DNA from: Rhodobacter sp.
GTDB lineage: Bacteria; Pseudomonadota; Alphaproteobacteria; Rhodobacterales; Rhodobacteraceae
NCBI GenBank assembly: GCA_020250125.1
Contig: JADCEL010000073.1
Span: forward strand, 1,369-65,368
Direction of reading: 5' to 3'
Length of the DNA: 64,000 nucleotides
Shown: positions 25,052 through 58,870 of the stretch, piece by piece
How positions within the stretch are numbered: the first letter of the stretch is position 1
Layout: each line of letters starts with the position of its first letter
The notes under the pieces: model-generated
Databases searched by the model: none
What the model was told of the DNA's origin: nothing
The model's input: the letters and a program-made list of their open reading frames with translations, nothing else
Translations under genes and position numbers: made by a program

Positions 25052-25918
25052 CAGCCGGGGCCCAAAGCCCCCCGGCGGGCGCTTCACGCCCGCCGGGTCG
25101 GGCGCTGTCCTCTGTCCCTCCCGGACCTGCCGGTCTACAGGGCATTGTCCCGCGCGGGCGGGGGAAACGCGGGTCGCGTTTCCCCCGCCCGGAGGGGCGA
25201 AGGCACCATCGCCGCCTCAATGGCAGGGGCCATCGTCCTGCCACAGCGCTGCGCCGGGATCAGGAGCGGCCGGGGGCCAAAGCCCCCGGCCAGCGCCCGA
25301 CCCGCCCCCGGCGGGCGCTTCGCACCCGCCGGGTCGGGCGCTGGCCTCTGTGTCTCCCGGACCGCCCGATCTACAGGGGACCGTTCCGCGCGGGCGGGGG
25401 AAACGCGGTGCGTTTCCTGGTCCCGCCCGAAGGAGCGAGAGCACTTTCACCGCATCAATGGCAGGGGCTATCGCCCCTGCCACAGCGTCACGCCGGGATC
25501 AGGACGGGCCGGGGGCCAAAGCCCCCGGCCAGCGCCCGCCCCGCCACCGGCGGGCGCTTCGCCCCCGCCGGGTCGGGCGCTGGCCTCTGTCCCTCCCGGA
25601 CCGACCGGTCTACAGGGCACCGTCGCGCGCGGGCGGGGGAAACGCGGGTCGCGTTTCCTGTTCCCGCCCGGACGGGCGTTCTCGCGAATGCCCGGTCACT
25701 CTGGCAGGGGCCATCTCCCCTGCCCCAGCGCCACGCTGGCCCTTGCCCGGCCGGGGGCCAGAAGCCCCCCGCCCTCGGCGGGCGCTGGCCTCTGTCCTTC
25801 CCGGACCTGCCGGTCTGCAGGGCACCGTCCCCCGCCCAGAGGGGCAATTCCCTTCCCCGGATCGGCAAGACTGTTCCGACCGCCCCTGCGGGCGGAGTGC
25901 CGTTTCAGCACCCTGTCA
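25052..25918 (+). repeat. tandem array of about 3.5 composite palindromic units (~240 bp), ending in a TIR-like TTTCAGCACCCTGTCA
   Basis: hairpin GGCCGGGGGC-caaa-GCCCCCGGCC recurs at ~25054, 25268, 25507 and 25749 (periods ~214, 239, 242); the other hairpins recur in the same order. Confidence 0.9.
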
Positions 25919-27322
25919 ACTGTCATAGCGTGTGGCCCCGCGCCGTCTTTCGTCGATCGGGCGCGACAGGATGGCCGCATGGTGGGCGCGCTGGTCACAG
26001 TTGGCGCGCGGGCAGATCCGGCAGTTGATGCCGATGGGTGTCATCCGGGCACCTGACACCGTGAACTGTTCCGCATAACCGATATCGCCGGCATGTTCGA
26101 CAGCGCAGCCCATGGCCACGGCAAGCCGGTTGTCCTGGGCATGGCGCGCCGAAGTGGGCCTGTCAACGGTGCGGGAGATGACGAAGTATTGCGACGAATC
26201 CGGCATTTCGACGAACTGCGGGACGATCCGGCCCGGCGTGCGGAACGAGGTGTGGACATCAAGCCGCGGGCAGGCCCCGCCGTGTTCCGCCAGATGAAAG
26301 CCGGTGGAGTTGAAGCGTTTCGTCACGTTCCCCGCCTTGTCGATGCGCAGGAAGAAAAAGGGCACGCCCTGCGCCCCTTCGCGCTGCAAGGTCGTGGCCC
26401 GGTGGCAGGCCTGCTCGAAACTGACGCCGAAGCGGGTGGCAAGATGGTCGAAATCGTATTTCGACGCCCGCGCTTCTTTCAGGAAGGGGCCATAGGGCAT
26501 CAGCACGGCGGCGGCAAAGTAATTGGCCAGTTCGACGCGGCACCGGGCCAGCCCGCGCGTATCCGCAAGGCCGGAACGGGCAAGCAGGGTATCAAGCAGC
26601 GCGCGCTGTTCGATCAGACCGATGACATGGACCAGTTGGAAGACGCGGTTGGGGTAATCCAGCGCCTCGGACAGAAGGATATCGCGGCGGGCCTCGTCAT
26701 GGCGGCGCAGGGTGCTGGGCATGTCGGCCACGGACACCACGCGGACCGCAATTCCCAGACGCTCGCGCAGGCGGCGCTTGAGCAGGGAATAGACCTCGTC
26801 CGTTTCGATGGGGTCACTGCCCCAGAAGGCTTCGGCGGCATCCTCGAGCTCGCGGAAGTGATTGCGGTGCCGCCGGAAGTAGCTGTGTACCGCGGATTCG
26901 GGCGAACTGGCAAGGATGGGTTCCGCGCCGGCGGCAGCGCCTGACAGCGCCAGAAGCTGATCCGTCGCCGATTGATAGGCCCGATGCAGGGTCAGAAAGG
27001 CCGAAGCCAGGGTGGGGCTGTGTACAAGGGCGGCCCTGATCTGGGCAAGGTCGGGACGGCCCGCATCGAAGATCGGGTCCTGGATGATGGCCCGCAGGTC
27101 GGCAAGCTGGCTGGACCCGTCTTCATCCGCGATGTCGCGCCAGTCGATTCCGTAAACTTCGAACAGACGCAGCATCACCGGCACCGAGACGGACCGCTCG
27201 TTATTCTCAAGCAGGTTCACGTAAGAGGTGCTGATCCCAAGCGCGCGGGCCATGGCCCCCTGGGTTTCGCCCCGTTCGGTGCGAAGCCTGCGCAGGTGCG
27301 GGCCGATGAATGTCTTCTGCAT
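25916..27322 (-). CDS. XRE-family short-chain fatty acyl-CoA regulator (ScfR/RamB/PrpR/PccR family)
   Basis: N-terminal HTH (LGISTSYVNLLENNER), ELANYFAAAVLMPY, C-terminal CRICPRANCDQR Cys motif. Confidence 0.9.
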   Translation of the reverse strand: MQKTFIGPHLRRLRTERGETQGAMARALGISTSYVNLLENNERSVSVPVMLRLFEVYGIDWRDIADEDGSSQLADLRAIIQDPIFDAGRPDLAQIRAALVHSPTLASAFLTLHRAYQSATDQLLALSGAAAGAEPILASSPESAVHSYFRRHRNHFRELEDAAEAFWGSDPIETDEVYSLLKRRLRERLGIAVRVVSVADMPSTLRRHDEARRDILLSEALDYPNRVFQLVHVIGLIEQRALLDTLLARSGLADTRGLARCRVELANYFAAAVLMPYGPFLKEARASKYDFDHLATRFGVSFEQACHRATTLQREGAQGVPFFFLRIDKAGNVTKRFNSTGFHLAEHGGACPRLDVHTSFRTPGRIVPQFVEMPDSSQYFVISRTVDRPTSARHAQDNRLAVAMGCAVEHAGDIGYAEQFTVSGARMTPIGINCRICPRANCDQRAHHAAILSRPIDERRRGATRYDS

Positions 27323-27372: not shown

Positions 27373-27392
27373 TGTAAACTCTCGCGTTTACA
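27373..27392. promoter_or_regulatory. candidate operator for the ScfR-family regulator
   Basis: perfect TGTAAAC-N6-GTTTACA inverted repeat in the AT-rich divergent intergenic region. Confidence 0.55.
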
Positions 27393-27472
27393 GCAGGACC
27401 TGCATGGGTCTTGCGGGCAGCGCCGATGCTGGCATAGGGGGGTCGCAGCAGCGCAGGGTTTGGGAGGACAAC

Positions 27473-28675
27473 ATGCGGACCGGCACCAATCACCTTTTCA
27501 TTCCAGGCCCGACCAACGTGCCGGAAACAGTCCGGCAGGCCATGAACGTGCCGATGCAGGATATGCGCGCACCGGATTTCGGTGACCTGACACTTGGCCT
27601 TTTCACAGACCTGAAGCGCCTGTTCCGGACGGATTCGGGCCGGGTGATGATGTTTCCCGGTTCTGGCACCGCCGCCTGGGAAGCCGCGATGACAAATACG
27701 TTAAGCCCCGGTGACAGGGTGCTGATGTCCCGCTTCGGCCAGTTTTCGCATCTTTGGGTGGAAATGGCTGAACGGCTTGGCCTGAACGTGGTCTGTATCG
27801 ACGTGCCCTGGGGCGGCGGCGTGCCGGTCAGCGATTATGCGCGCATCCTTGAGGCCGATACCAGGGGCGAAATCAAGGCCGTCTTCGTAACGCATAACGA
27901 AACCGCGACGGGCGTGACATCCGATGTGGCGGCAGTGCGGCAGGTGATGGATGCGTGCCGCCACGACGCCCTGCTGTTCGTTGATGGCGTCAGTTCGATC
28001 GGCTCTGTCGATTTCCGGATGGATGACTGGCGTGTCGATCTGGCGGTGACGGGCAGCCAGAAAGGGCTGATGCTGCCTGCCGGGCTGGGCATTCTTGCCG
28101 TCAGCGGAAAGGCCCTTGAGGCAGCCGCGACGGCAACCTCGCGCCGCGCCTATTTCGAATTCAGGGACATGCTGACCCTGAACGAGACCGGGTACTTTCC
28201 CTACACCCCGCCGACGCAACTGTTCCACGGTCTGCGCAAGTCGCTGGACCGCATCTTTGCCGAAGGGCTGGACAATGTGATTGCCCGTCATCACCGGCTG
28301 GCCGAAGGGGTCCGGCGCGGGATTCATGCCTGGGGCCTTGATCTGTGCGCGGAACATCCCTTGCTGCACTCTGATACCGTCTCTGCGATCCGGGTGCCCG
28401 AAGGCGTTGATGCCCGCGATGTGATCAGGATCGGCTATGCGCGCTACAACGCCTCCTTCGGATCGGGTCTGGCACGGCTGGCGGGCAAGGTGTTCCGTAT
28501 CGGTCATCTGGGGGATCTGAACGAAGGGATGTGCCTGACGGCCCTGTCCATCGCTGAAATGGCGCTGGTCGAGGCCGGGGCCAGGATCGACTTCGGATCG
28601 GGCGTGGGCGCGGCGCAAAGCTGGTATGCGAAAGGCGCCGCTGCATCGGACCCGCTGCGCATGGCAGCAGAATAA
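27473..28675 (+). CDS. sgaA: serine--glyoxylate (class V) aminotransferase
   Basis: LFIPGPTNVP, HNETATGV, DGVSS, GSQKG (PLP Lys), FRIGHLGDLN; GGAGG before ATG 27473. Confidence 0.8.
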   Translation: MRTGTNHLFIPGPTNVPETVRQAMNVPMQDMRAPDFGDLTLGLFTDLKRLFRTDSGRVMMFPGSGTAAWEAAMTNTLSPGDRVLMSRFGQFSHLWVEMAERLGLNVVCIDVPWGGGVPVSDYARILEADTRGEIKAVFVTHNETATGVTSDVAAVRQVMDACRHDALLFVDGVSSIGSVDFRMDDWRVDLAVTGSQKGLMLPAGLGILAVSGKALEAAATATSRRAYFEFRDMLTLNETGYFPYTPPTQLFHGLRKSLDRIFAEGLDNVIARHHRLAEGVRRGIHAWGLDLCAEHPLLHSDTVSAIRVPEGVDARDVIRIGYARYNASFGSGLARLAGKVFRIGHLGDLNEGMCLTALSIAEMALVEAGARIDFGSGVGAAQSWYAKGAAASDPLRMAAE

Positions 28676-28692
28676 CCTGACAGGACAAGACC

Positions 28693-29634
28693 ATGAGCCA
28701 TACCCTTTTCCCGCTGCGCCGTCAGAGGTTGCAGCGGTCAGAACTTGCCGTGCCGGCCTCGAACCCGGCGATGATCGACAAGGCCGCCGATGGGCCTGCG
28801 GATTATGTCTTTCTTGACCTGGAAGATGCGGTTGCCCCGCCCGAAAAGGAACAGGCGCGCCGCAATGCCGTTCAGGCCCTGAACGACATCGACTGGGCCG
28901 CCAAAGGCAAGACTGTTTCCGTGCGCATCAATGGCCTTGATACGCATTACATGTACCGCGACGTGGTCGACATCATGGAACAGGCCGGCAACCGGGTTCA
29001 CACGCTACTGGTGCCGAAAGTGGGCGTTCGTGACGATCTTTACATGGTCGAGGCGATGGTCAACCAGATCGAGCAGGGCAAGGGATACAGTACCCGCGTC
29101 GGGCTGGAAGCGCTGATCGAGACGGCCCTGGGCATGGCGAATGTGGAAAGCATCGCGCAATTCGGCGGCCGGCTTGAGGCGCTGCATTTCGGTGTGGCGG
29201 ATTACGCGGCCTCGATGCGCGCCCGCACCACGAATATCGGCGGTCTGAACCCGCATTATCCGGGCGATCAGTGGCATGCCGCACTCAGCCGCATGACGAT
29301 CGCCTGCCGCGCCTACGGCTTGCGCGCCATTGACGGGCCGTTCGGCGATTTCAGCGACCCGGATGGCTACCGGGACGGCGCGCGGCGGGCAGCAGCCCTT
29401 GGTTGCGAAGGCAAGTGGGCGATCCACCCCAGCCAGGTCGCGCTGGCCAACGAGGTGTTCTCGCCGCCGGAGTCCGAGGTGACAAAGGCCCGGCGCATCA
29501 TCGAGGAATTGCGCAAGGCCGAAGCGCAGGGCAAGGGGGCGGCATCGCTGGACGGCAAGATGATCGATGCCGCATCCGAGAAGATGGCGAACAACGTTCT
29601 GGTACTGGCCGAGGCCATTGCCGCGCGCAGCTGA
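28693..29634 (+). CDS. mcl: malyl-CoA/beta-methylmalyl-CoA lyase (MclA type, CitE family)
   Basis: RSELAVP, FLDLEDAVAP, RINGLDTHYMYRDVVD, GKWAIHPSQ resemble Methylobacterium MclA (recalled). Confidence 0.85.
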   Translation: MSHTLFPLRRQRLQRSELAVPASNPAMIDKAADGPADYVFLDLEDAVAPPEKEQARRNAVQALNDIDWAAKGKTVSVRINGLDTHYMYRDVVDIMEQAGNRVHTLLVPKVGVRDDLYMVEAMVNQIEQGKGYSTRVGLEALIETALGMANVESIAQFGGRLEALHFGVADYAASMRARTTNIGGLNPHYPGDQWHAALSRMTIACRAYGLRAIDGPFGDFSDPDGYRDGARRAAALGCEGKWAIHPSQVALANEVFSPPESEVTKARRIIEELRKAEAQGKGAASLDGKMIDAASEKMANNVLVLAEAIAARS

Positions 29635-29685: not shown

Positions 29686-30858
29686 ATGGACATTCACGAA
29701 TATCAGGCGAAAGAAATCCTTGCGCGCTTTGGCGTGCCGGTGCCGCGCGGCGGGCTGGCCTACAGCCCGGAACAGGCAGGGTATCGCGCCCGCGAGTTGG
29801 GCGGCAGCGCCTGGGTGGTGAAGGCGCAGATCCATTCCGGTGGCCGTGGTGCTGCCGGGGGCGTCAGGCTGTGCCGCAGCGAGGATGAGGTGCGCGAATT
29901 TGCATCAACCCTGTTCGGGCGCCAGCTGGTGACCAGGCAGACCGATGCCAACGGCAAGGGCGTGTACCGCGTCTGGGTCGAAGGCGCATCGGACATCGCG
30001 CAGGAGTTGTATCTGGGCTTCGTGCTGGATCGCACGTCCGAGCGGATCATGATCGTGGCATCCGCCCATGGCGGCATGGAGATTGAGGACCTTGCCGCAA
30101 CCGATCCCGCGTCGCTGAAGCGCATGACGATTGACCCCGCCGTGGGCCTTTCGGAGTTTCAGGCGCGCGAGCTGGCCTTTGCGCTGGGCCTGAAGGCGGG
30201 CCAGGTGGCGCAGATGGTGACGATCCTGCGTGCCTGCTACCGCGCATACCGTGATCTGGATGCAACCATGGTCGAGATCAACCCGCTGGTGATCACCGGC
30301 GCGGGCGACCTTGTGGCGCTGGATGCCAAGATGAGCTTTGACACCAACGCGCTGTTCCGCAGGCCGGAAATCCACGAGTTGCGCGACCGCAGCCAGGAAG
30401 ACCCGCGTGAATCGACGGCCGGCGACTATGGTCTGGCCTATGTCGGGCTGGATGGCGACATCGGCTGCATCATCAACGGTGCCGGACTGGCCATGGCCAC
30501 GATGGACATGATCAAGCTGGCCGGGGGCGAGCCTGCCAACTTTCTGGATATCGGCGGCGGGGCAAGCCCCGAGCGGGTGGTCAGGGCGTTCCGCACCGTT
30601 CTGGCAGACCGCAATGTCAGCGTGATTCTTGTGAACATCTTTGCCGGCATCAACCGCTGTGACTGGGTGGCCGAGGGGGTTGTGCAAGCCTACCGCGAGG
30701 TTGGCCTGACCCTTCCCGTGGTGGTGCGCCTGGCGGGCACCAATGTGGAAGAGGGCAAGCGGATTCTGGAAGGGTCCGGCCTGCCGCTGATCACGGCAGA
30801 CACGCTGGCAGAAGCGGCCGACAAGGCCGTTGCCGCCCGTGCGAAACTTGCGGCCTGA
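29686..30858 (+). CDS. mtkA: malate--CoA ligase (malate thiokinase) large subunit
   Basis: SucC fold but [15 protein letters not shown] (MtkA-type) rather than NIFGGIxRCD; adjacent to mcl. Confidence 0.85.
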
Positions 30859-30870
30859 GGAGGGGACAGC

Positions 30871-31767
30871 ATGGCAATTCTCATAACGGACCGGACCCCT
30901 GTCATCGTTCAGGGCATTTCCGGGCGGATCGGCCAGTTCCACGCGGCGGACATGATCCGCTACGGCACCAATGTTGTCGGCGGTGTCACGCCCGGCAAGG
31001 GCGGATCGCAGGTACTGGAGCGTCCCGTGTTCAACACCGTGCGGGAAGCGGTCGCGGCGACCGGTGCCGAAGCCAGCCTGGTCTTCGTGCCGCCGCCCTT
31101 TGCGGCCGATGCCATCATGGAAGCAGCCGATGCCGGAATCCGCACGGCGGTCTGCGTCACCGACGGCATTCCCAGCCAGGACATGATGAAGGTGAAGCGG
31201 TTTTTGCGCCGCTATCCGGAAGACCGCAAGATGCGGCTGGTCGGCCCGAATTGCGCCGGGGTTATCAGCCCGGGCCAGGGGTTTCTGGGGATCATGCCGC
31301 CGCATATCTACATGGCGGGCCGGGTTGGCATTGTGGGCCGGTCAGGCACGCTGGGCTACGAGGCGGCCAGCCAGATGAAGGCGCTGGGCATTGGCGTTTC
31401 GACCAGCGTCGGCATCGGGGGCGACCCGATCAACGGATCAAGCTTCAAGGATATTCTCGCGCTGTTTCAGGCTGATCCGGATACGGATGCGGTCATGATG
31501 ATCGGCGAAATTGGCGGCCCGCAGGAGGCCGAGGCGGCGGCATGGGTACAGGACCATATGACCAAACCCGTGGTGGCCTATATTGCCGGTCTGTCCGCGC
31601 CGAAAGGCCGCAAGATGGGACATGCCGGGGCCATCATTTCGGCCTTTGGGGAAAGTGCGCAGGAAAAGGTTGAAATCCTGAGCGCGGCGGGAATCACGGT
31701 GGCCCCGAACCCATCCGCGATGGGCGAGACGATGGCGCGGGTGCTGTCGCTGCGCGCAGCCGCCTGA
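30871..31767 (+). CDS. mtkB: malate--CoA ligase small subunit (SucD-like)
   Basis: GGVTPGKGG, GPNCAG, MGHAGAI phospho-His; follows mtkA. Confidence 0.85.
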   Translation: MAILITDRTPVIVQGISGRIGQFHAADMIRYGTNVVGGVTPGKGGSQVLERPVFNTVREAVAATGAEASLVFVPPPFAADAIMEAADAGIRTAVCVTDGIPSQDMMKVKRFLRRYPEDRKMRLVGPNCAGVISPGQGFLGIMPPHIYMAGRVGIVGRSGTLGYEAASQMKALGIGVSTSVGIGGDPINGSSFKDILALFQADPDTDAVMMIGEIGGPQEAEAAAWVQDHMTKPVVAYIAGLSAPKGRKMGHAGAIISAFGESAQEKVEILSAAGITVAPNPSAMGETMARVLSLRAAA

Positions 31768-55008: not shown

Positions 55009-55871
55009 ACCCCGAAGCGGTGCCGCAGATGCTCGACAGCCAGCCGGTTCGCCCCGTCGCGTCCGATGCCACGTTCGACATGCGATGTCAGCGACCCGAG
55101 CCGGTCATAGGCCCCGTCTGCGAATACCGGTCTTGGCTGGGCGGTGACCCAGACCTTGACACCCTTGAGATAGGCCATTCCCGAAAGCCAGACGTCATCG
55201 ACCGTCCAGAGGATGTCGGGTATGGTCCAGGCTTGGTCAGGGAAGCTGTCAGCAGGCACCAGGGCACCGAGGAAACCCTCAAAGACATCGGCATAGCCGG
55301 ACAAGGCATAAACCGCCCTTGGCGGATGCACGAGGCCGAGAGAGAGGAGTCGCTTCAGGCGATAGGCCGCAGACCGGCCGCGCCTTGCATCAAGAACGGC
55401 GCGCGGAAGTTCCGGCGCAATCCGGGCAATTCCGACCTGCCCGTCAATATTCCAGCCGCGTTCCGCGATGATGTCCACGGGACGCTCCCGGCGTGCCGTG
55501 ACGAAACGTGAAATCCATCCCCGGTCCTGAATGCGGTCATCATCGCACAGCAGAAGGTCCGTCTCCGTCCCCCGCCAGCGCGCTGCGGCAGGCAGAACCT
55601 TCGTGGCCGGACCAAGGTCATCATCGCAATGGATCACGTCCACCCACTCTGGCAGGGGCGGCAGCGACGGAGCCGCGCCGGGAAAGCGGCGGTATGTTCG
55701 GGGCAGGTGCAGCTCTACCCGATCCGGCCGGACATCTTGCCGCATGACAGACGCCAGTTTGCGCGGAAGGTTCGGGAACCGGGGCGGGATCGCGGTCAGG
55801 GTCACGACAAGCTGTTTCTTTGGTCGGTGTGACACCGCAACAGGCTCCGCTCCGCAGGTCCCCGCGGACAT
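54999..55871 (-). CDS. GT-A-fold glycosyltransferase-like protein
   Basis: VVTLTAIPPR, DLGPATKVLP, CDDD, VDDVWLSG; start uncertain. Confidence 0.7.
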   Translation of the reverse strand: MSAGTCGAEPVAVSHRPKKQLVVTLTAIPPRFPNLPRKLASVMRQDVRPDRVELHLPRTYRRFPGAAPSLPPLPEWVDVIHCDDDLGPATKVLPAAARWRGTETDLLLCDDDRIQDRGWISRFVTARRERPVDIIAERGWNIDGQVGIARIAPELPRAVLDARRGRSAAYRLKRLLSLGLVHPPRAVYALSGYADVFEGFLGALVPADSFPDQAWTIPDILWTVDDVWLSGMAYLKGVKVWVTAQPRPVFADGAYDRLGSLTSHVERGIGRDGANRLAVEHLRHRFGVWP

Positions 55872-56166
55872 GATGAAGAGATACCCCGTATATCCGGTGA
55901 CCGGTTTCGCCGAAAGGGGCAGAGGTTGCGAATCAATGCGCAACCGATGCCGCATACGCCCGCCGGACATGCACGGGAACACCGCTTCGCCCGGTGCCGC
56001 AGAAGAGGACGAGGCACCCTTTAACTGCCCCCCGCGTCGTGTCGGGGGGCAACCTGGTCCTGACGGGCGACAATATCCGTCACCCTGCGCGGGATCATGG
56101 ACCTTGCCCTTGGCTGTAACCGCAAGCCGCAATAAAGCTGCGCAAAGAAGGCTGCAGGGAAAAGAC

Positions 56167-56997
56167 ATGTCCGAAGTGTTCGGTTCGTGGATCGGGCGGG
56201 TCCAGGAGGCCCATGACATCGTGACCGCCCGCCAGGTGCGGCAGATGGCGGCGACCCTGGACGTGTCCGGCACCTTTGCCGATGGCGATCCGCTGCCCGC
56301 GCTGTGGCACTGGATGGGGTGGACACCCGAAACCCCGATGGCAGACCTCGGGCCGGACGGTCACCCGGCCAGGGGCGGTTTTCTGCCGCCGGTGCCGCTG
56401 GAACGGCGCATGTGGGCGGGGGGGCGGCTGGCCTTTCTGGCCCCGCTGCGGATCGGTGAAACCCTGCACCGGCGGTCGGAAATCCTGAAGGTGGCCGAAA
56501 AGACCGGCACGACCGGGCGCATGGTCTTTGTCACGCTGCGGCACGAGGTGACAGGGCAGGCAGGGCTTGCGGTGCGCGAAGAGCAGGACATCGTCTATAT
56601 CGCGATGCCTGACCGCTTCACCCCGCCGCCGCCCGTTCCCGCCCCTGCCGCCGCGTGGCGGCGGGATGTGCCGATGGATACCGTGCGGCTGTTCCGCTTT
56701 TCGGCGCTGACCTTCAACGCGCACCGCATCCATTTCGACCTGCCCTATGCGACGGCGGTCGAGAAATATCCGGGGCTGGTGGTACATGGCCCGATGCAGG
56801 CGATGCTGCTGATGCAGGCGGCGCGCGACCGGTCGCAGGGCGCGGTCCCGCGCGGCTACCGGTTTCGCGGCCTGCGCCCGCTGTTTCATTTCGATGCGCT
56901 GAGCCTGCAAGGTCAGGGGCCGGCGGCGGGGGCCGAAGCGCTGGCAACGGTCAACGGCGAAGGGCTGCTGTGCATGCAGGCCGATATCGACTGGTAG
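56167..56997 (+). CDS. meh: double-hotdog hydratase, mesaconyl-C4-CoA/itaconyl-CoA hydratase type
   Basis: DGHP.RGGFLPP, RRMWAGG, EEQDIVY, LFRFSALTFNAHRIH, GLVVHGP; start ATG 56167. Confidence 0.75.
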   Translation: MSEVFGSWIGRVQEAHDIVTARQVRQMAATLDVSGTFADGDPLPALWHWMGWTPETPMADLGPDGHPARGGFLPPVPLERRMWAGGRLAFLAPLRIGETLHRRSEILKVAEKTGTTGRMVFVTLRHEVTGQAGLAVREEQDIVYIAMPDRFTPPPPVPAPAAAWRRDVPMDTVRLFRFSALTFNAHRIHFDLPYATAVEKYPGLVVHGPMQAMLLMQAARDRSQGAVPRGYRFRGLRPLFHFDALSLQGQGPAAGAEALATVNGEGLLCMQADIDW

Positions 56998-57034
56998 GGC
57001 GCGGCTCCTGCCGGCATCCGGGAAAGGACAGACT

Positions 57035-58246
57035 GTGGGCGTGCTGAAAGGAATGCGGGTGGTCGAAGGATCGGCCTTCGTCGCGGTGCCGCTGGCGGGC
57101 ATGACGCTGGCGCAGATGGGGGCGGATGTGATCCGGTTCGACCGCCTGCAGGGCGGCCTGGACGCGCGGCGCTGGCCGGTGACGGCCAGTGGTGCAAGCC
57201 TGTTCTGGGCCGGGATGAACAAGGGCAAACGGTCGCTGGCCGTGGATTTGGGACACCCCGAAGGGCAAGAGATTGTAACCGCCCTGATCTGCGCGCCGGG
57301 CGAGGATGCCGGGCTGTTCCTGACCAATCTTCGCGCCCGCGGCTGGATGGATTATCCCGCCTTGCAGGCGCGCCGCGCCGATCTGGTCATGGTCAGCCTG
57401 ACGGGCACCCGGCGGGGCGAACCGGCGGTTGATTACACGGTCAACCCTGCCCTTGGCTTTCCGGTGGCCACCGGCGCGGAAGGTTCGACCGAACCCGTGG
57501 CCCATGTGCTGCCCGCCTGGGATTGCATCGCCGGGCAGATGGTGGTCAATGCCCTGCTGGCTGCGGAACGGCACCGGATGCGGTCAGGCCAGGGCCAGCT
57601 TGCCGAGTTGTCGCTGAAGGATGTGGCGGCGGCGATGATGGGTCATCTGGGCATCGTCGGCGAGGTGACGGTCAACGGGGTGGACCGGGCCAAGGCGGGC
57701 AATGCGCTTTACGGGGCTTACGGGCAGGATTTCACGCTTGCCTGCGGGCGCAGGGTGATGGTGATCGGCCTGACCGACCGGCAATGGCGCGGCCTGGTCA
57801 AGGTGCTGGGGCTGGAGCAGCAGATCGCGGGCCTGGGTGCCCGGATGGCTTTGGACCTGACACAGGAAGGCGACCGCTGGGCAGCCCGGCACGAAATCAG
57901 CGCGCTGTTCCGCCCCTGGTTTGCGGCGCGGACCCTGGCCGAGGTGGCACCCCTGTTCGATGCAGCCGGGCTGACGTGGTCGGTCTTTCGCAGCTTTGCC
58001 CAGGCGGTGGCCGAAGACCCCGATCTGTCGCCGGACAATCCCATGTACCAGATGCTGGATCAGCCGGGCATCGGGCGCATTCCGGTTCCGGGATTGCCCG
58101 TCAGCTTCGGTGCCATCGCCAGGATGGCCCCGTCCCCGGCACCGGTTCTGGGCGCGCATACCGAAGAAATCCTGTCCGAAGTTCTGGGTCTGGGTGCCGG
58201 GCAGATCGGGCGGCTGATGGACCTGGGCGTGGTCGCGGGCACCTGA
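57035..58246 (+). CDS. mct: mesaconyl-CoA C1-C4 CoA transferase (2-methylfumaryl-CoA isomerase), family III
   Basis: VVEGSAFVA.PL.GMTLAQ.GADVIRFD, GGLD..RWP, ICAPGE.AGLF.TN, VDYTVNP, HVLPAWD track the recalled Chloroflexus Mct end to end. Confidence 0.85.
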   Translation: MGVLKGMRVVEGSAFVAVPLAGMTLAQMGADVIRFDRLQGGLDARRWPVTASGASLFWAGMNKGKRSLAVDLGHPEGQEIVTALICAPGEDAGLFLTNLRARGWMDYPALQARRADLVMVSLTGTRRGEPAVDYTVNPALGFPVATGAEGSTEPVAHVLPAWDCIAGQMVVNALLAAERHRMRSGQGQLAELSLKDVAAAMMGHLGIVGEVTVNGVDRAKAGNALYGAYGQDFTLACGRRVMVIGLTDRQWRGLVKVLGLEQQIAGLGARMALDLTQEGDRWAARHEISALFRPWFAARTLAEVAPLFDAAGLTWSVFRSFAQAVAEDPDLSPDNPMYQMLDQPGIGRIPVPGLPVSFGAIARMAPSPAPVLGAHTEEILSEVLGLGAGQIGRLMDLGVVAGT

Positions 58247-58785
58247 CGGCGCCAAACCCCTGACCGGGCGCTGCGTCCGGCCCCCCCCCGACCTGCCCCC
58301 GCGGCAGGGCGCGTGTTCAGACATGCAGCCCTTCAGCCCGCCTGCCGGACCAGGCAGATGTCAGACGGCACGGTGGAAAAAATGTCGCCGCCGGTAACGG
58401 CACGGGTCTGCAAACCGGCTGTCACCGATGCAGCCGGTGCCCCTTGGCCAACTGTGCCGCCCGATGACAGCAAACAGGCCAGACGGGCGTGCAGGCACCG
58501 CTTTCTGTCTTCCCCCGGTCATGCCGGAAAGAAGAAAGGTATGGCGGGCAGCCTTGATCCGCAGGTCCCAAGACGGGCGGCACCGGTTCCGGGCCGGGCA
58601 AAGGTCCTTGCGGAACCGGCACCGCACCCGGCCCCGCCGCCGCCAGGATCACGCCACCTGACGGCGGACAACCCGAAGACGCCCGCTGATGCTGTCCAGC
58701 GTCGCCCCGGAAGGGCCTTGGCGGTTCCGGGTGCAATCGCCGGGCGGGCCTGCGGCATTACGTTCGGGCAAACCGGTCAAACCGG

Positions 58786-58799
58786 ATGATCAGGATCAT
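58786..58799 (+). promoter_or_regulatory. FNR/CRP-like palindrome upstream of the second usp
   Basis: ATGAT-CAGG-ATCAT; TAGGGT -10-like hexamer at 58822 gives class II (about -41.5) geometry. Confidence 0.5.
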
Positions 58800-58870
58800 T
58801 GTCGGGCCCTGCGGCGCAGGGTAGGGTGATGCTGTCAGGGCAGGGATTTCGTCAGTTGCAGGAGAAGACC

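Follow-up and report, generated by a model that had tools for sequence, protein, structure and literature searches.

A meh-mct gene pair and a lost mch in a freshwater Rhodobacter: a possible pyruvate-forming exit of the ethylmalonyl-CoA pathway

In the accepted picture, the ethylmalonyl-CoA (EMC) pathway has a single exit, in which Mch and then Mcl give glyoxylate and propionyl-CoA. What, in a member of the Rhodobacteraceae, could be the use of a pair of genes of the 3-hydroxypropionate (3HP) bi-cycle, meh and mct? The question is raised by a stretch of Rhodobacter sp. DNA of 64,000 nucleotides, here called the window, in which a hydratase gene (meh) is directly followed by a CoA transferase gene (mct). 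The window (65-68% G+C) is contig C71 of a genome, G000, whose assembly of 3.28 Mb in 99 contigs is 87% complete, and all the evidence presented here is genomic, obtained by comparative genomics. Because this genome is predicted to make mesaconyl-C1-CoA but has lost mch, we propose that Mct and Meh are an exit of the EMC pathway after the loss of Mch, leading to pyruvate and acetyl-CoA; we regard the chances of this being correct as even. That the freshwater Rhodobacter-like group harbours a natural EMC variant, in which Mch is lost, Mct, Meh and Mcl give pyruvate and acetyl-CoA, and an oxygen-tolerant route bypasses glyoxylate and propionyl-CoA, is a claim that we hold more tentatively, as somewhat less probable than its opposite.

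The meh-mct pair

A preliminary description of the window had reported a hotdog hydratase gene directly followed by a family III CoA transferase gene, and both open reading frames (ORFs) lie exactly where it had placed them. The second of the two, mct (57035..58246, plus strand, GTG start), encodes a homologue, of 403 residues, of the mesaconyl-CoA C1-C4 intramolecular CoA transferase. The product is a family III CoA transferase (PF02515, 192 bits) which matches TIGR04253, the NCBIfam model for 2-methylfumaryl-CoA isomerase, along positions 1-402 of the 403 in the model; the score is 562 bits, against 121 bits for the next family. Its motifs had also been said to follow those of the Chloroflexus Mct along the whole length. 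This was borne out by the alignment of residues 2-402 with the solved Mct of Chloroflexus (8APQ, 535 bits) and of Roseiflexus (7XKG, 532 bits), which needs one gap of a single residue; for the following PDB match the score drops to 91 bits. On these alignments no intermolecular family III enzyme comes anywhere near as close to the window transferase as the crystallised intramolecular Mct does.

The residues listed in the structure paper (PMC9813914) were read off the alignment with the solved Mct. Six of the eleven are kept (Leu43, Arg47, Asn100, Arg104, Tyr136 and Asp165), as is Asp135, which makes a backbone contact to the substrate. Asp165 is catalytic, Arg47 and Tyr136 bind the mesaconate carboxylate, and Leu or Ile at position 43 narrows the entrance (PMC9813914); Asp165, Arg47, Tyr136 and Leu43 are invariant across eight aligned Rhodobacteraceae Mct sequences. 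The substitutions are Arg75 to Gly, Phe101 to Leu, Ile74 to Leu and, at another backbone contact, Glu133 to Ala. Residues Ile74, Arg75, Phe101, Arg104 and Asn100 form the 'cork' that holds the CoA adenosine (PMC9813914), and in the eight aligned sequences position 101 is invariably Leu and position 75 mostly Lys. The window transferase belongs to the Mct subfamily, and C1/C4 transfer activity is predicted from its sequence.

The first gene, meh (56167..56997, plus strand, ATG start), lies on the same strand as mct, with a gap of 37 nt between them, and encodes a 276-residue homologue of mesaconyl-C4-CoA hydratase, also called (S)-citramalyl-CoA dehydratase, from the Ich/Meh family of double-hotdog proteins. 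A longer frame of 488 residues starting at 55531 is a read-through upstream of meh, and the start of meh is the ATG at 56167. The product matches Pfam PF13452 (FAS1_DH_region, 45 bits) over residues 8-138 and the itaconyl-CoA hydratase of Pseudomonas aeruginosa (PDB 8HUC/8KHG, 228 bits) over residues 3-274; it thus combines a double-hotdog architecture, a length of about 275 residues, full-length homology to a characterised member and adjacency to mct. Its close metagenome homologues carry the JGI name '3-methylfumaryl-CoA hydratase', and it is 52-55% identical to the meh products of the smtAB-meh-mcl-mct clusters found in Competibacteraceae.

The only relative of Meh with a solved structure, the itaconyl-CoA hydratase, hydrates mesaconyl-C4-CoA as well (PMC12290011), and this favours a catabolic reading in which Meh has both hydratase activities in the use of itaconate, mesaconate, citramalate or methylsuccinate. 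Mct would then rescue mesaconyl-C1-CoA or methylsuccinate-derived esters arising from unspecific CoA transferases, and a CaiB-type transferase and a CitE-like lyase, whose genes are adjacent on contig C86, would load CoA and cleave the product. Against it, no transporter, Ict, Ccl or acyl-CoA dehydrogenase gene, and no CoA transferase or lyase gene either, adjoins meh-mct in the window; the preliminary description had argued on this ground against a standard ict-ich-ccl operon, and the argument holds. The closeness of the transferase to intramolecular Mct also speaks against this reading, which we consider improbable.

The closest public relative at the mct locus is a metagenome-assembled genome (MAG) of a freshwater Rhodobacter sp., with 97% protein identity, here called the sister MAG. 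The next-closest loci belong to R. amnigenus, R. maris, R. calidifons, Pseudorhodobacter and Cypionkella, and most DNA runs in which the stretch is found come from freshwater or lake metagenomes.

Mesaconyl-C1-CoA supply, the mch deletion and the proposed route

The genome carries ccr (602 bits, above the cut-off of 378) with an ecm-type mutase gene divergent from it, mcd (903 bits to the Paracoccus denitrificans Mcd, PDB 6ES9), phaA, phaB and a gene for a CroR-like hydratase. Judged by this gene content, it makes mesaconyl-C1-CoA via the upper EMC pathway (PhaA/PhaB, CroR-like hydratase, Ccr, Ecm and Mcd). The preliminary description had counted on a genomic source of mesaconyl-C1-CoA, and the finding of ccr, ecm and mcd agrees with it. 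A second mutase and a carboxyltransferase, encoded on contig C60, are by similarity the candidate methylmalonyl-CoA mutase (MCM) and PccB. A loss of the propionyl-CoA branch, which would have backed a rerouting of the pathway, was rejected, as candidates for both propionyl-CoA carboxylase (PCC) and MCM are present.

As query for Mch we used the protein of a relative, G094, which scores 418 bits against the beta-methylmalyl-CoA dehydratase 8HGN and matches 178 of 200 genera sampled across the Rhodobacteraceae. Searches with this protein, by tblastn and with a hidden Markov model found no mch in the 87%-complete assembly of G000. A Pfam MaoC search of the genome returned only a gene of 157 codons on contig C35, whose product was rejected as Mch for its likeness to PhaJ/CroR-type proteins. 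A small single-hotdog Mch-like protein of genome G036 was likewise rejected as a shared replacement for Mch, being absent from G000 and from other Mch-less genomes.

The conserved site of mch is nnrU-DUF-mch-sdhC, where DUF is a gene with a domain of unknown function, and this order is found in G094, G030, G083 and R. calidifons. In G000, contig C7 carries nnrU, the DUF gene, a spacer of 458 bp and sdhC without mch. The spacer contains a relic of 60 residues, in the right orientation, that is 42% identical to Mch residues 6-63, and it also matches the 5' end of mch of G030 and G083 at the DNA level; the same gap is present in the sister MAG. Since the flanking genes are contiguous inside one contig, mch has been lost by deletion and is not missing through an assembly gap. 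In a separate observation, the mch of the Mct-bearing isolate R. calidifons M37P (G206, C11:317837-318868, L205) has one in-frame TGA, due perhaps to a sequencing error, perhaps to incipient pseudogenisation.

This deletion bears on the route that the preliminary description had preferred, which required a 'genomic Mch'; with mch deleted at its conserved locus and no other copy detected in the assembly, that part of the proposal does not stand. In the preferred route Mcl, Mch and the pair would form the second half of the 3HP bi-cycle, converting glyoxylate and propionyl-CoA into pyruvate and acetyl-CoA or the reverse. Beta-methylmalyl-CoA would pass through mesaconyl-C1-CoA and the C4 ester to citramalyl-CoA, and MtkAB with Mcl would supply glyoxylate from malate or consume it. 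No Mch being found, this interconversion cannot run here with known enzymes. The second route that had been offered, a link to the EMC pathway, comes closest to the evidence. The position of the pair, 24 kb from mtkB and lacking the motif associated with the RamB regulator (see below), also tells against the glyoxylate and propionyl-CoA route, which in this genome we regard as unlikely, if a little less so than the catabolic reading.

The loss of mch recurs among relatives, in 11 other Mct-bearing genomes. In the 200-genus sample, three Mct-bearing genomes that are 93-100% complete (G036, G057 and G071) have ccr and lack Mch, and the syntenic mch locus is empty in two of them (G036 and G071). 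G172 was recognised as a false negative, since its mch runs off the end of a contig. Among the 16 closest Mct-bearing genomes, eight are without Mch (G201, G205, G208, G209, G210, G211, G215 and G216); in all eight the nnrU-DUF-sdhC locus is intact without mch, with spacers of 141-1010 bp, and five of them (G201, G205, G209, G215 and G216) carry ccr.

In the route that we propose, Mcd would form mesaconyl-C1-CoA, which, Mch being gone, would be converted by Mct to mesaconyl-C4-CoA and by Meh to (S)-citramalyl-CoA, if the enzymes have the specificities predicted for them. A lyase would then release pyruvate and acetyl-CoA. By our own inferred stoichiometry, the net reaction would be acetyl-CoA + CO2 + 2 NADPH to pyruvate and reduced electron-transferring flavoprotein, and neither glyoxylate nor propionyl-CoA would be formed. 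The acting lyase might be the MclA-type enzyme encoded at 28.7 kb of the window or the CitE-like lyase of contig C86; these two and an HpaI aldolase are the only three HpcH/CitE-type proteins of the genome. The Mcl1 of R. sphaeroides reversibly forms citramalyl-CoA, with the equilibrium towards cleavage (PMC3832036), and as the Mcl of the window is of the same type, flux in the direction of cleavage would be thermodynamically reasonable. The CitE-like protein scores 130 bits against the RipC/Ccl model, under its cut-off, and could be a citramalyl-CoA lyase or an Mcl2-like thioesterase. On C86 its gene (L002:2688-3554) overlaps that of the CaiB-type CoA transferase (L002:1384-2691) by 4 nt and is followed by an AtzE-family amidase gene.

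Gene order, operators and transcripts

An Mct orthologue is present in 31 of the 200 sampled genera (448-581 bits). A separate set of 80 named meh-mct loci was also compared; in about 72 of them meh immediately precedes mct, and the stand-alone pair is the commonest arrangement. In 8 of the 31 Mct-bearing genera, and likewise in 8 of the 80 named loci, the pair comes immediately after sga-mcl-mtkA-mtkB, and a gene for a RamB/ScfR-type regulator is divergent from this operon. Carriers of this ramB|sga-mcl-mtkAB-meh-mct operon include Mameliella alba, Roseinatronobacter bogoriensis DSM 18756 and Roseicyclus, and in three further loci (L123, L125 and L170) ramB is directly divergent from meh-mct. 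Across the 200 genera, Mct and MtkA occur together in 18, Mct alone in 13, MtkA alone in 31 and neither in 138, an odds ratio of 6.2 that is uncorrected for phylogeny.

The window holds the orthologues of these operon genes (61-89% identity) at 25.9-31.8 kb. The regulator gene (25916..27313, minus strand) scores 363 bits against NF038139, under the cut-off, and is divergent from an sga-like gene (27485..28675, plus strand) for a class V aminotransferase of the glyoxylate aminotransferase type, which reaches 573 bits against the BhcA model NF045640, whose cut-off is 650. The next gene, mcl (28681..29634, plus strand), encodes the MclA-type malyl-CoA/beta-methylmalyl-CoA lyase named above as a candidate (S)-citramalyl-CoA lyase; it scores 390 bits to the Methylobacterium extorquens Mcl (5UGR) and 305 bits to R. 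sphaeroides Mcl1 (4L9Y). It is followed by mtkA-mtkB (29686..31767, plus strand), encoding a malate-CoA ligase (malate thiokinase), with 696 bits for MtkA against NF010647 (cut-off 604) and 432 bits for the alpha subunit against NF004230. The scores of Mcl and MtkA uphold the earlier report of mcl-mtkAB in the window, and the shared operon in relatives does the same for the suggested functional link between the pair and Mcl/MtkAB; at the level of the family, gene order indicates that this link is real.

These gene orders favour the glyoxylate and propionyl-CoA route, as do the co-occurrence of Mct with MtkA, the smtAB-meh-mcl-mct loci of Competibacteraceae and the partial bi-cycle published in Proteobacteria (PMC6593406). 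So do contexts related to glyoxylate or propionyl-CoA, in which the pair lies beside a gene for a PrpE-like ligase (meh-mct-prpE), for a glyoxylate-reductase-like dehydrogenase with an aminotransferase, or for ureidoglycine aminohydrolase. In relatives that keep Mch, the conversion of glyoxylate and propionyl-CoA is probably what the pair serves. The genes that keep company with the pair over the 80 loci belong to central C2/C3 metabolism (ramB, sga, mcl, mtkAB and prpE); ict and ccl are not among these conserved partners, which counts against the use of itaconate and related acids. None of the five serine-cycle cluster patterns described in PMC13199381 includes meh-mct or a RamB regulator.

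Three side observations on these loci may be recorded here. The PrpE-like ligase gene directly follows meh-mct in L106, L107 (Meridianimarinicoccus), L131 and L028 (G178), with 723 bits to the propionate-CoA ligase model, under the cut-off. In L034, L035 and L043 (G024, G045 and G004), meh-mct adjoins tuf, the gene for EF-Tu, in a ribosomal-protein region. Two records with typical Rhodobacter-like meh-mct loci (L097 and L112) are titled as a 'Variovorax paradoxus' MAG and a 'Limisphaerales bacterium' MAG, probably through mis-binning or wrong labelling.

Upstream of meh in the window, 24 nt before its ATG, lies a degenerate operator-like palindrome, CCGCAATAAAGCTGCGC (56127..56143). The element is conserved ahead of meh in the clade of this genome, with the consensus GCGCAAT-N3-ATTGCGC, from which the window copy departs by three mismatches and that of the sister MAG by one, the copy of R. 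amnigenus being perfect. The best match in the whole genome falls between phaA and phaB (C59:11410-11426; L180:3411), and R. amnigenus and G212 carry the same palindrome upstream of phaB, so that the phaB site is found in three genomes; a reversed-pattern control gave 0 matches. Loci with the form shared by phaB and meh, GCGCAAT-A(A/T)T-(A/G)TTGCGC, include L183, L190 and L195. Weaker copies, each departing from the palindrome at 3 positions, are found close to mcd (C34:59608) and to the croR-like gene (C35:2657); between ccr and ecm, and ahead of phaA, all matches have 4-5 mismatches. Such motif sharing points to co-regulation of meh-mct with the acetoacetyl-CoA/polyhydroxybutyrate (PHB)/EMC entry. 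An operator in common with phaB also points to acetyl-CoA/PHB metabolism, which again argues against the catabolic reading. Further upstream, a -35-like element, TGGACCTTG (TTGACCTT in relatives; 56098..56106, plus strand), occupies invariant or near-invariant columns of the alignment of meh-upstream regions; we infer its nature from these columns, the consensus sigma-70 scan having called no promoter at this position.

A different motif accompanies ramB. The promoter/operator-like motif CGCGTTTACAGCAGG (27383..27397, plus strand), TAAAnTCTCGCATTTACAGCAGGACCCG in its extended form, is conserved in intergenic regions adjacent to ramB. The extended motif was found, with 0-4 mismatches, in 11 of 12 such regions, the next gene being sga or meh, and is missing from L155; it is likely to be the operator of the RamB/ScfR-type regulator. 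It spans about 28 nt, at 27375-27405 in the window, and also occurs in L126, L130, L135, L146, L147, L151, L158, L123, L125 and L170. It was not found upstream of stand-alone meh genes, that of the window included.

In one study of a freshwater lake, RNA-library contigs from two runs span 56158-58262 and no more, two of them crossing from meh into mct. The contigs miss 55832-56157 and 58263-58844, while DNA runs continue on both flanks; such contigs show presence, not absence. The pattern hints, weakly but consistently, at a dicistronic meh-mct transcript. This coverage, which takes in exactly both genes, bears on one more possibility, namely that the pair is a non-functional or redundant remnant of the ramB|sga-mcl-mtkAB-meh-mct operon, split by a rearrangement. 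Such a remnant would be in keeping with the degenerate operator copy and with the position of the pair, on the strand of mtkB but 24 kb away from it, with what seem to be insertions in between. Both ORFs are intact, however, and keep their catalytic residues; their products are 93% (Meh) and 97% (Mct) identical to those of the sister MAG and 60-83% identical to those of many relatives, where the genes are undisrupted, and the stand-alone arrangement is, as noted, the usual one. That the pair is a mere leftover is therefore most improbable.

The other neighbours of the pair encode a GT2 glycosyltransferase, Usp, a photolyase and PepN, together with an ORF without an assigned family. An ORF at 58313-58789 was taken as spurious, having no family match, a low-complexity composition and conservation only in the sister MAG. 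It is the only ORF in the region of about 550 bp from mct to Usp (58247-58798), where DNA contigs from other lake samples vary strongly and show small indels.

Several observations weigh against an EMC exit through Mct and Meh. Mch is kept in 28 of the 31 Mct-bearing genera, and in the genus sample the association between Mch loss and Mct is weak (3/31 vs 4/155, Fisher p = 0.09). Four genera (G091, G114, G125 and G039; loci L085, L090, L092 and L086) have ccr and neither Mch nor Mct, with mch lacking from the syntenic locus in three of them; there must therefore be another way to live without Mch, or the EMC pathway is broken in these genera. Ich-like hydratases of G091, G114 and G039 were rejected as an explanation for the loss, as their genes are located in unrelated clusters. 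In G000 itself the candidate PCC and MCM genes are kept, so that the propionyl-CoA branch is not seen to be dispensable, and the completeness of 87% leaves room for a second, non-syntenic mch in the missing 13%. The palindrome of the window is degenerate, with its 3 mismatches. As to the enzymes, two of the CoA-adenosine 'cork' residues of Mct are changed (Arg75 to Gly and Phe101 to Leu), and its score of 562 bits is below the TIGR04253 equivalog cut-off of 725; all 31 relatives within the family likewise fall below this cut-off, which appears to have been set for Chloroflexi-type sequences. The Mct and Meh of Rhodobacteraceae are, besides, enzymes predicted from sequence.

Relation to known systems

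If a lineage with Ccr, Ecm and Mcd, a deleted mch and the pair Mct-Meh does use them as proposed, it would show a second, pyruvate-forming exit of the EMC pathway. This would change the modelling of acetate, PHB and C4 assimilation in abundant freshwater Rhodobacteraceae and would offer a ready-made, oxygen-tolerant module from acetyl-CoA and CO2 to pyruvate. As the operon occurs in the cultured Mameliella alba and Roseinatronobacter bogoriensis, the biochemistry is directly testable.

The enzymes themselves, partial bi-cycles in Proteobacteria and the labels given to these genes by automated pipelines are already known. A hybrid route outside Chloroflexi, as named in the preliminary description, is in this sense not new, partial 3HP bi-cycles having been published for several Proteobacteria (PMC6593406). 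In the literature searched (full text, and an anaplerotic review of purple bacteria), we found no Mct or Meh of Rhodobacteraceae, no ramB|sga-mcl-mtkAB-meh-mct operon and no Mch-less EMC pathway. A connection from methylsuccinate through a C4-ester dehydrogenase to citramalyl-CoA is discussed only as a tool for synthetic pathways (PMC12290011).

The chemistry of Mct, Meh and Mcl is established in Chloroflexi, in the 3HP bi-cycle of Chloroflexus aurantiacus and Roseiflexus castenholzii (8APQ/8APR, 7XKG; PMC9813914, PMC9196870). The window shares with this system the transferase subfamily and a hydratase of the same family adjoining mct, and the same chemistry is expected. Unlike Chloroflexus and Roseiflexus, however, the genome is without Mch and SmtAB, and its Mct falls under the equivalog cut-off and has Gly and Leu in place of Arg75 and Phe101. 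The substrate would come from the Mcd of the EMC pathway and not, as in Chloroflexus, from the dehydration of beta-methylmalyl-CoA, and the host is a heterotrophic or photoheterotrophic alphaproteobacterium. The partial bi-cycle of Ca. Kentron, Ca. Thiosymbion, Competibacter, Accumulibacter and Ca. Riegeria (PMC6593406) likewise has orthologues of Mct and Meh outside Chloroflexi, there used heterotrophically; it includes Mch and Smt and is read as assimilating glyoxylate and propionyl-CoA, whereas here mch is deleted and a malate thiokinase is present instead of Smt.

With the EMC pathway of Rhodobacter sphaeroides, Methylobacterium extorquens and Paracoccus denitrificans, the genome has in common Ccr, Ecm, Mcd, the entry through PhaA and PhaB and, as predicted, the intermediate mesaconyl-C1-CoA. 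The canonical pathway leaves through Mch and Mcl1 to glyoxylate and propionyl-CoA; here the lyase gene mcl is present and Mch is absent, and the exit would run through Mct, Meh and a lyase. The itaconate/methylsuccinate cluster of Pseudomonas aeruginosa and Cupriavidus necator (PMC12290011; 8HUC, 8KHL), whose P. aeruginosa hydratase is a full-length homologue of Meh, passes through mesaconyl-C4-CoA and (S)-citramalyl-CoA to pyruvate and acetyl-CoA, as the proposed route would. That cluster consists of ict-ich-ccl with an acyl-CoA dehydrogenase and an isomerase, while no Ict, Ccl or methylsuccinyl-C4-CoA dehydrogenase is encoded beside the pair, and the two systems also differ in the partner of the hydratase, which there is an intermolecular transferase and here the intramolecular Mct.

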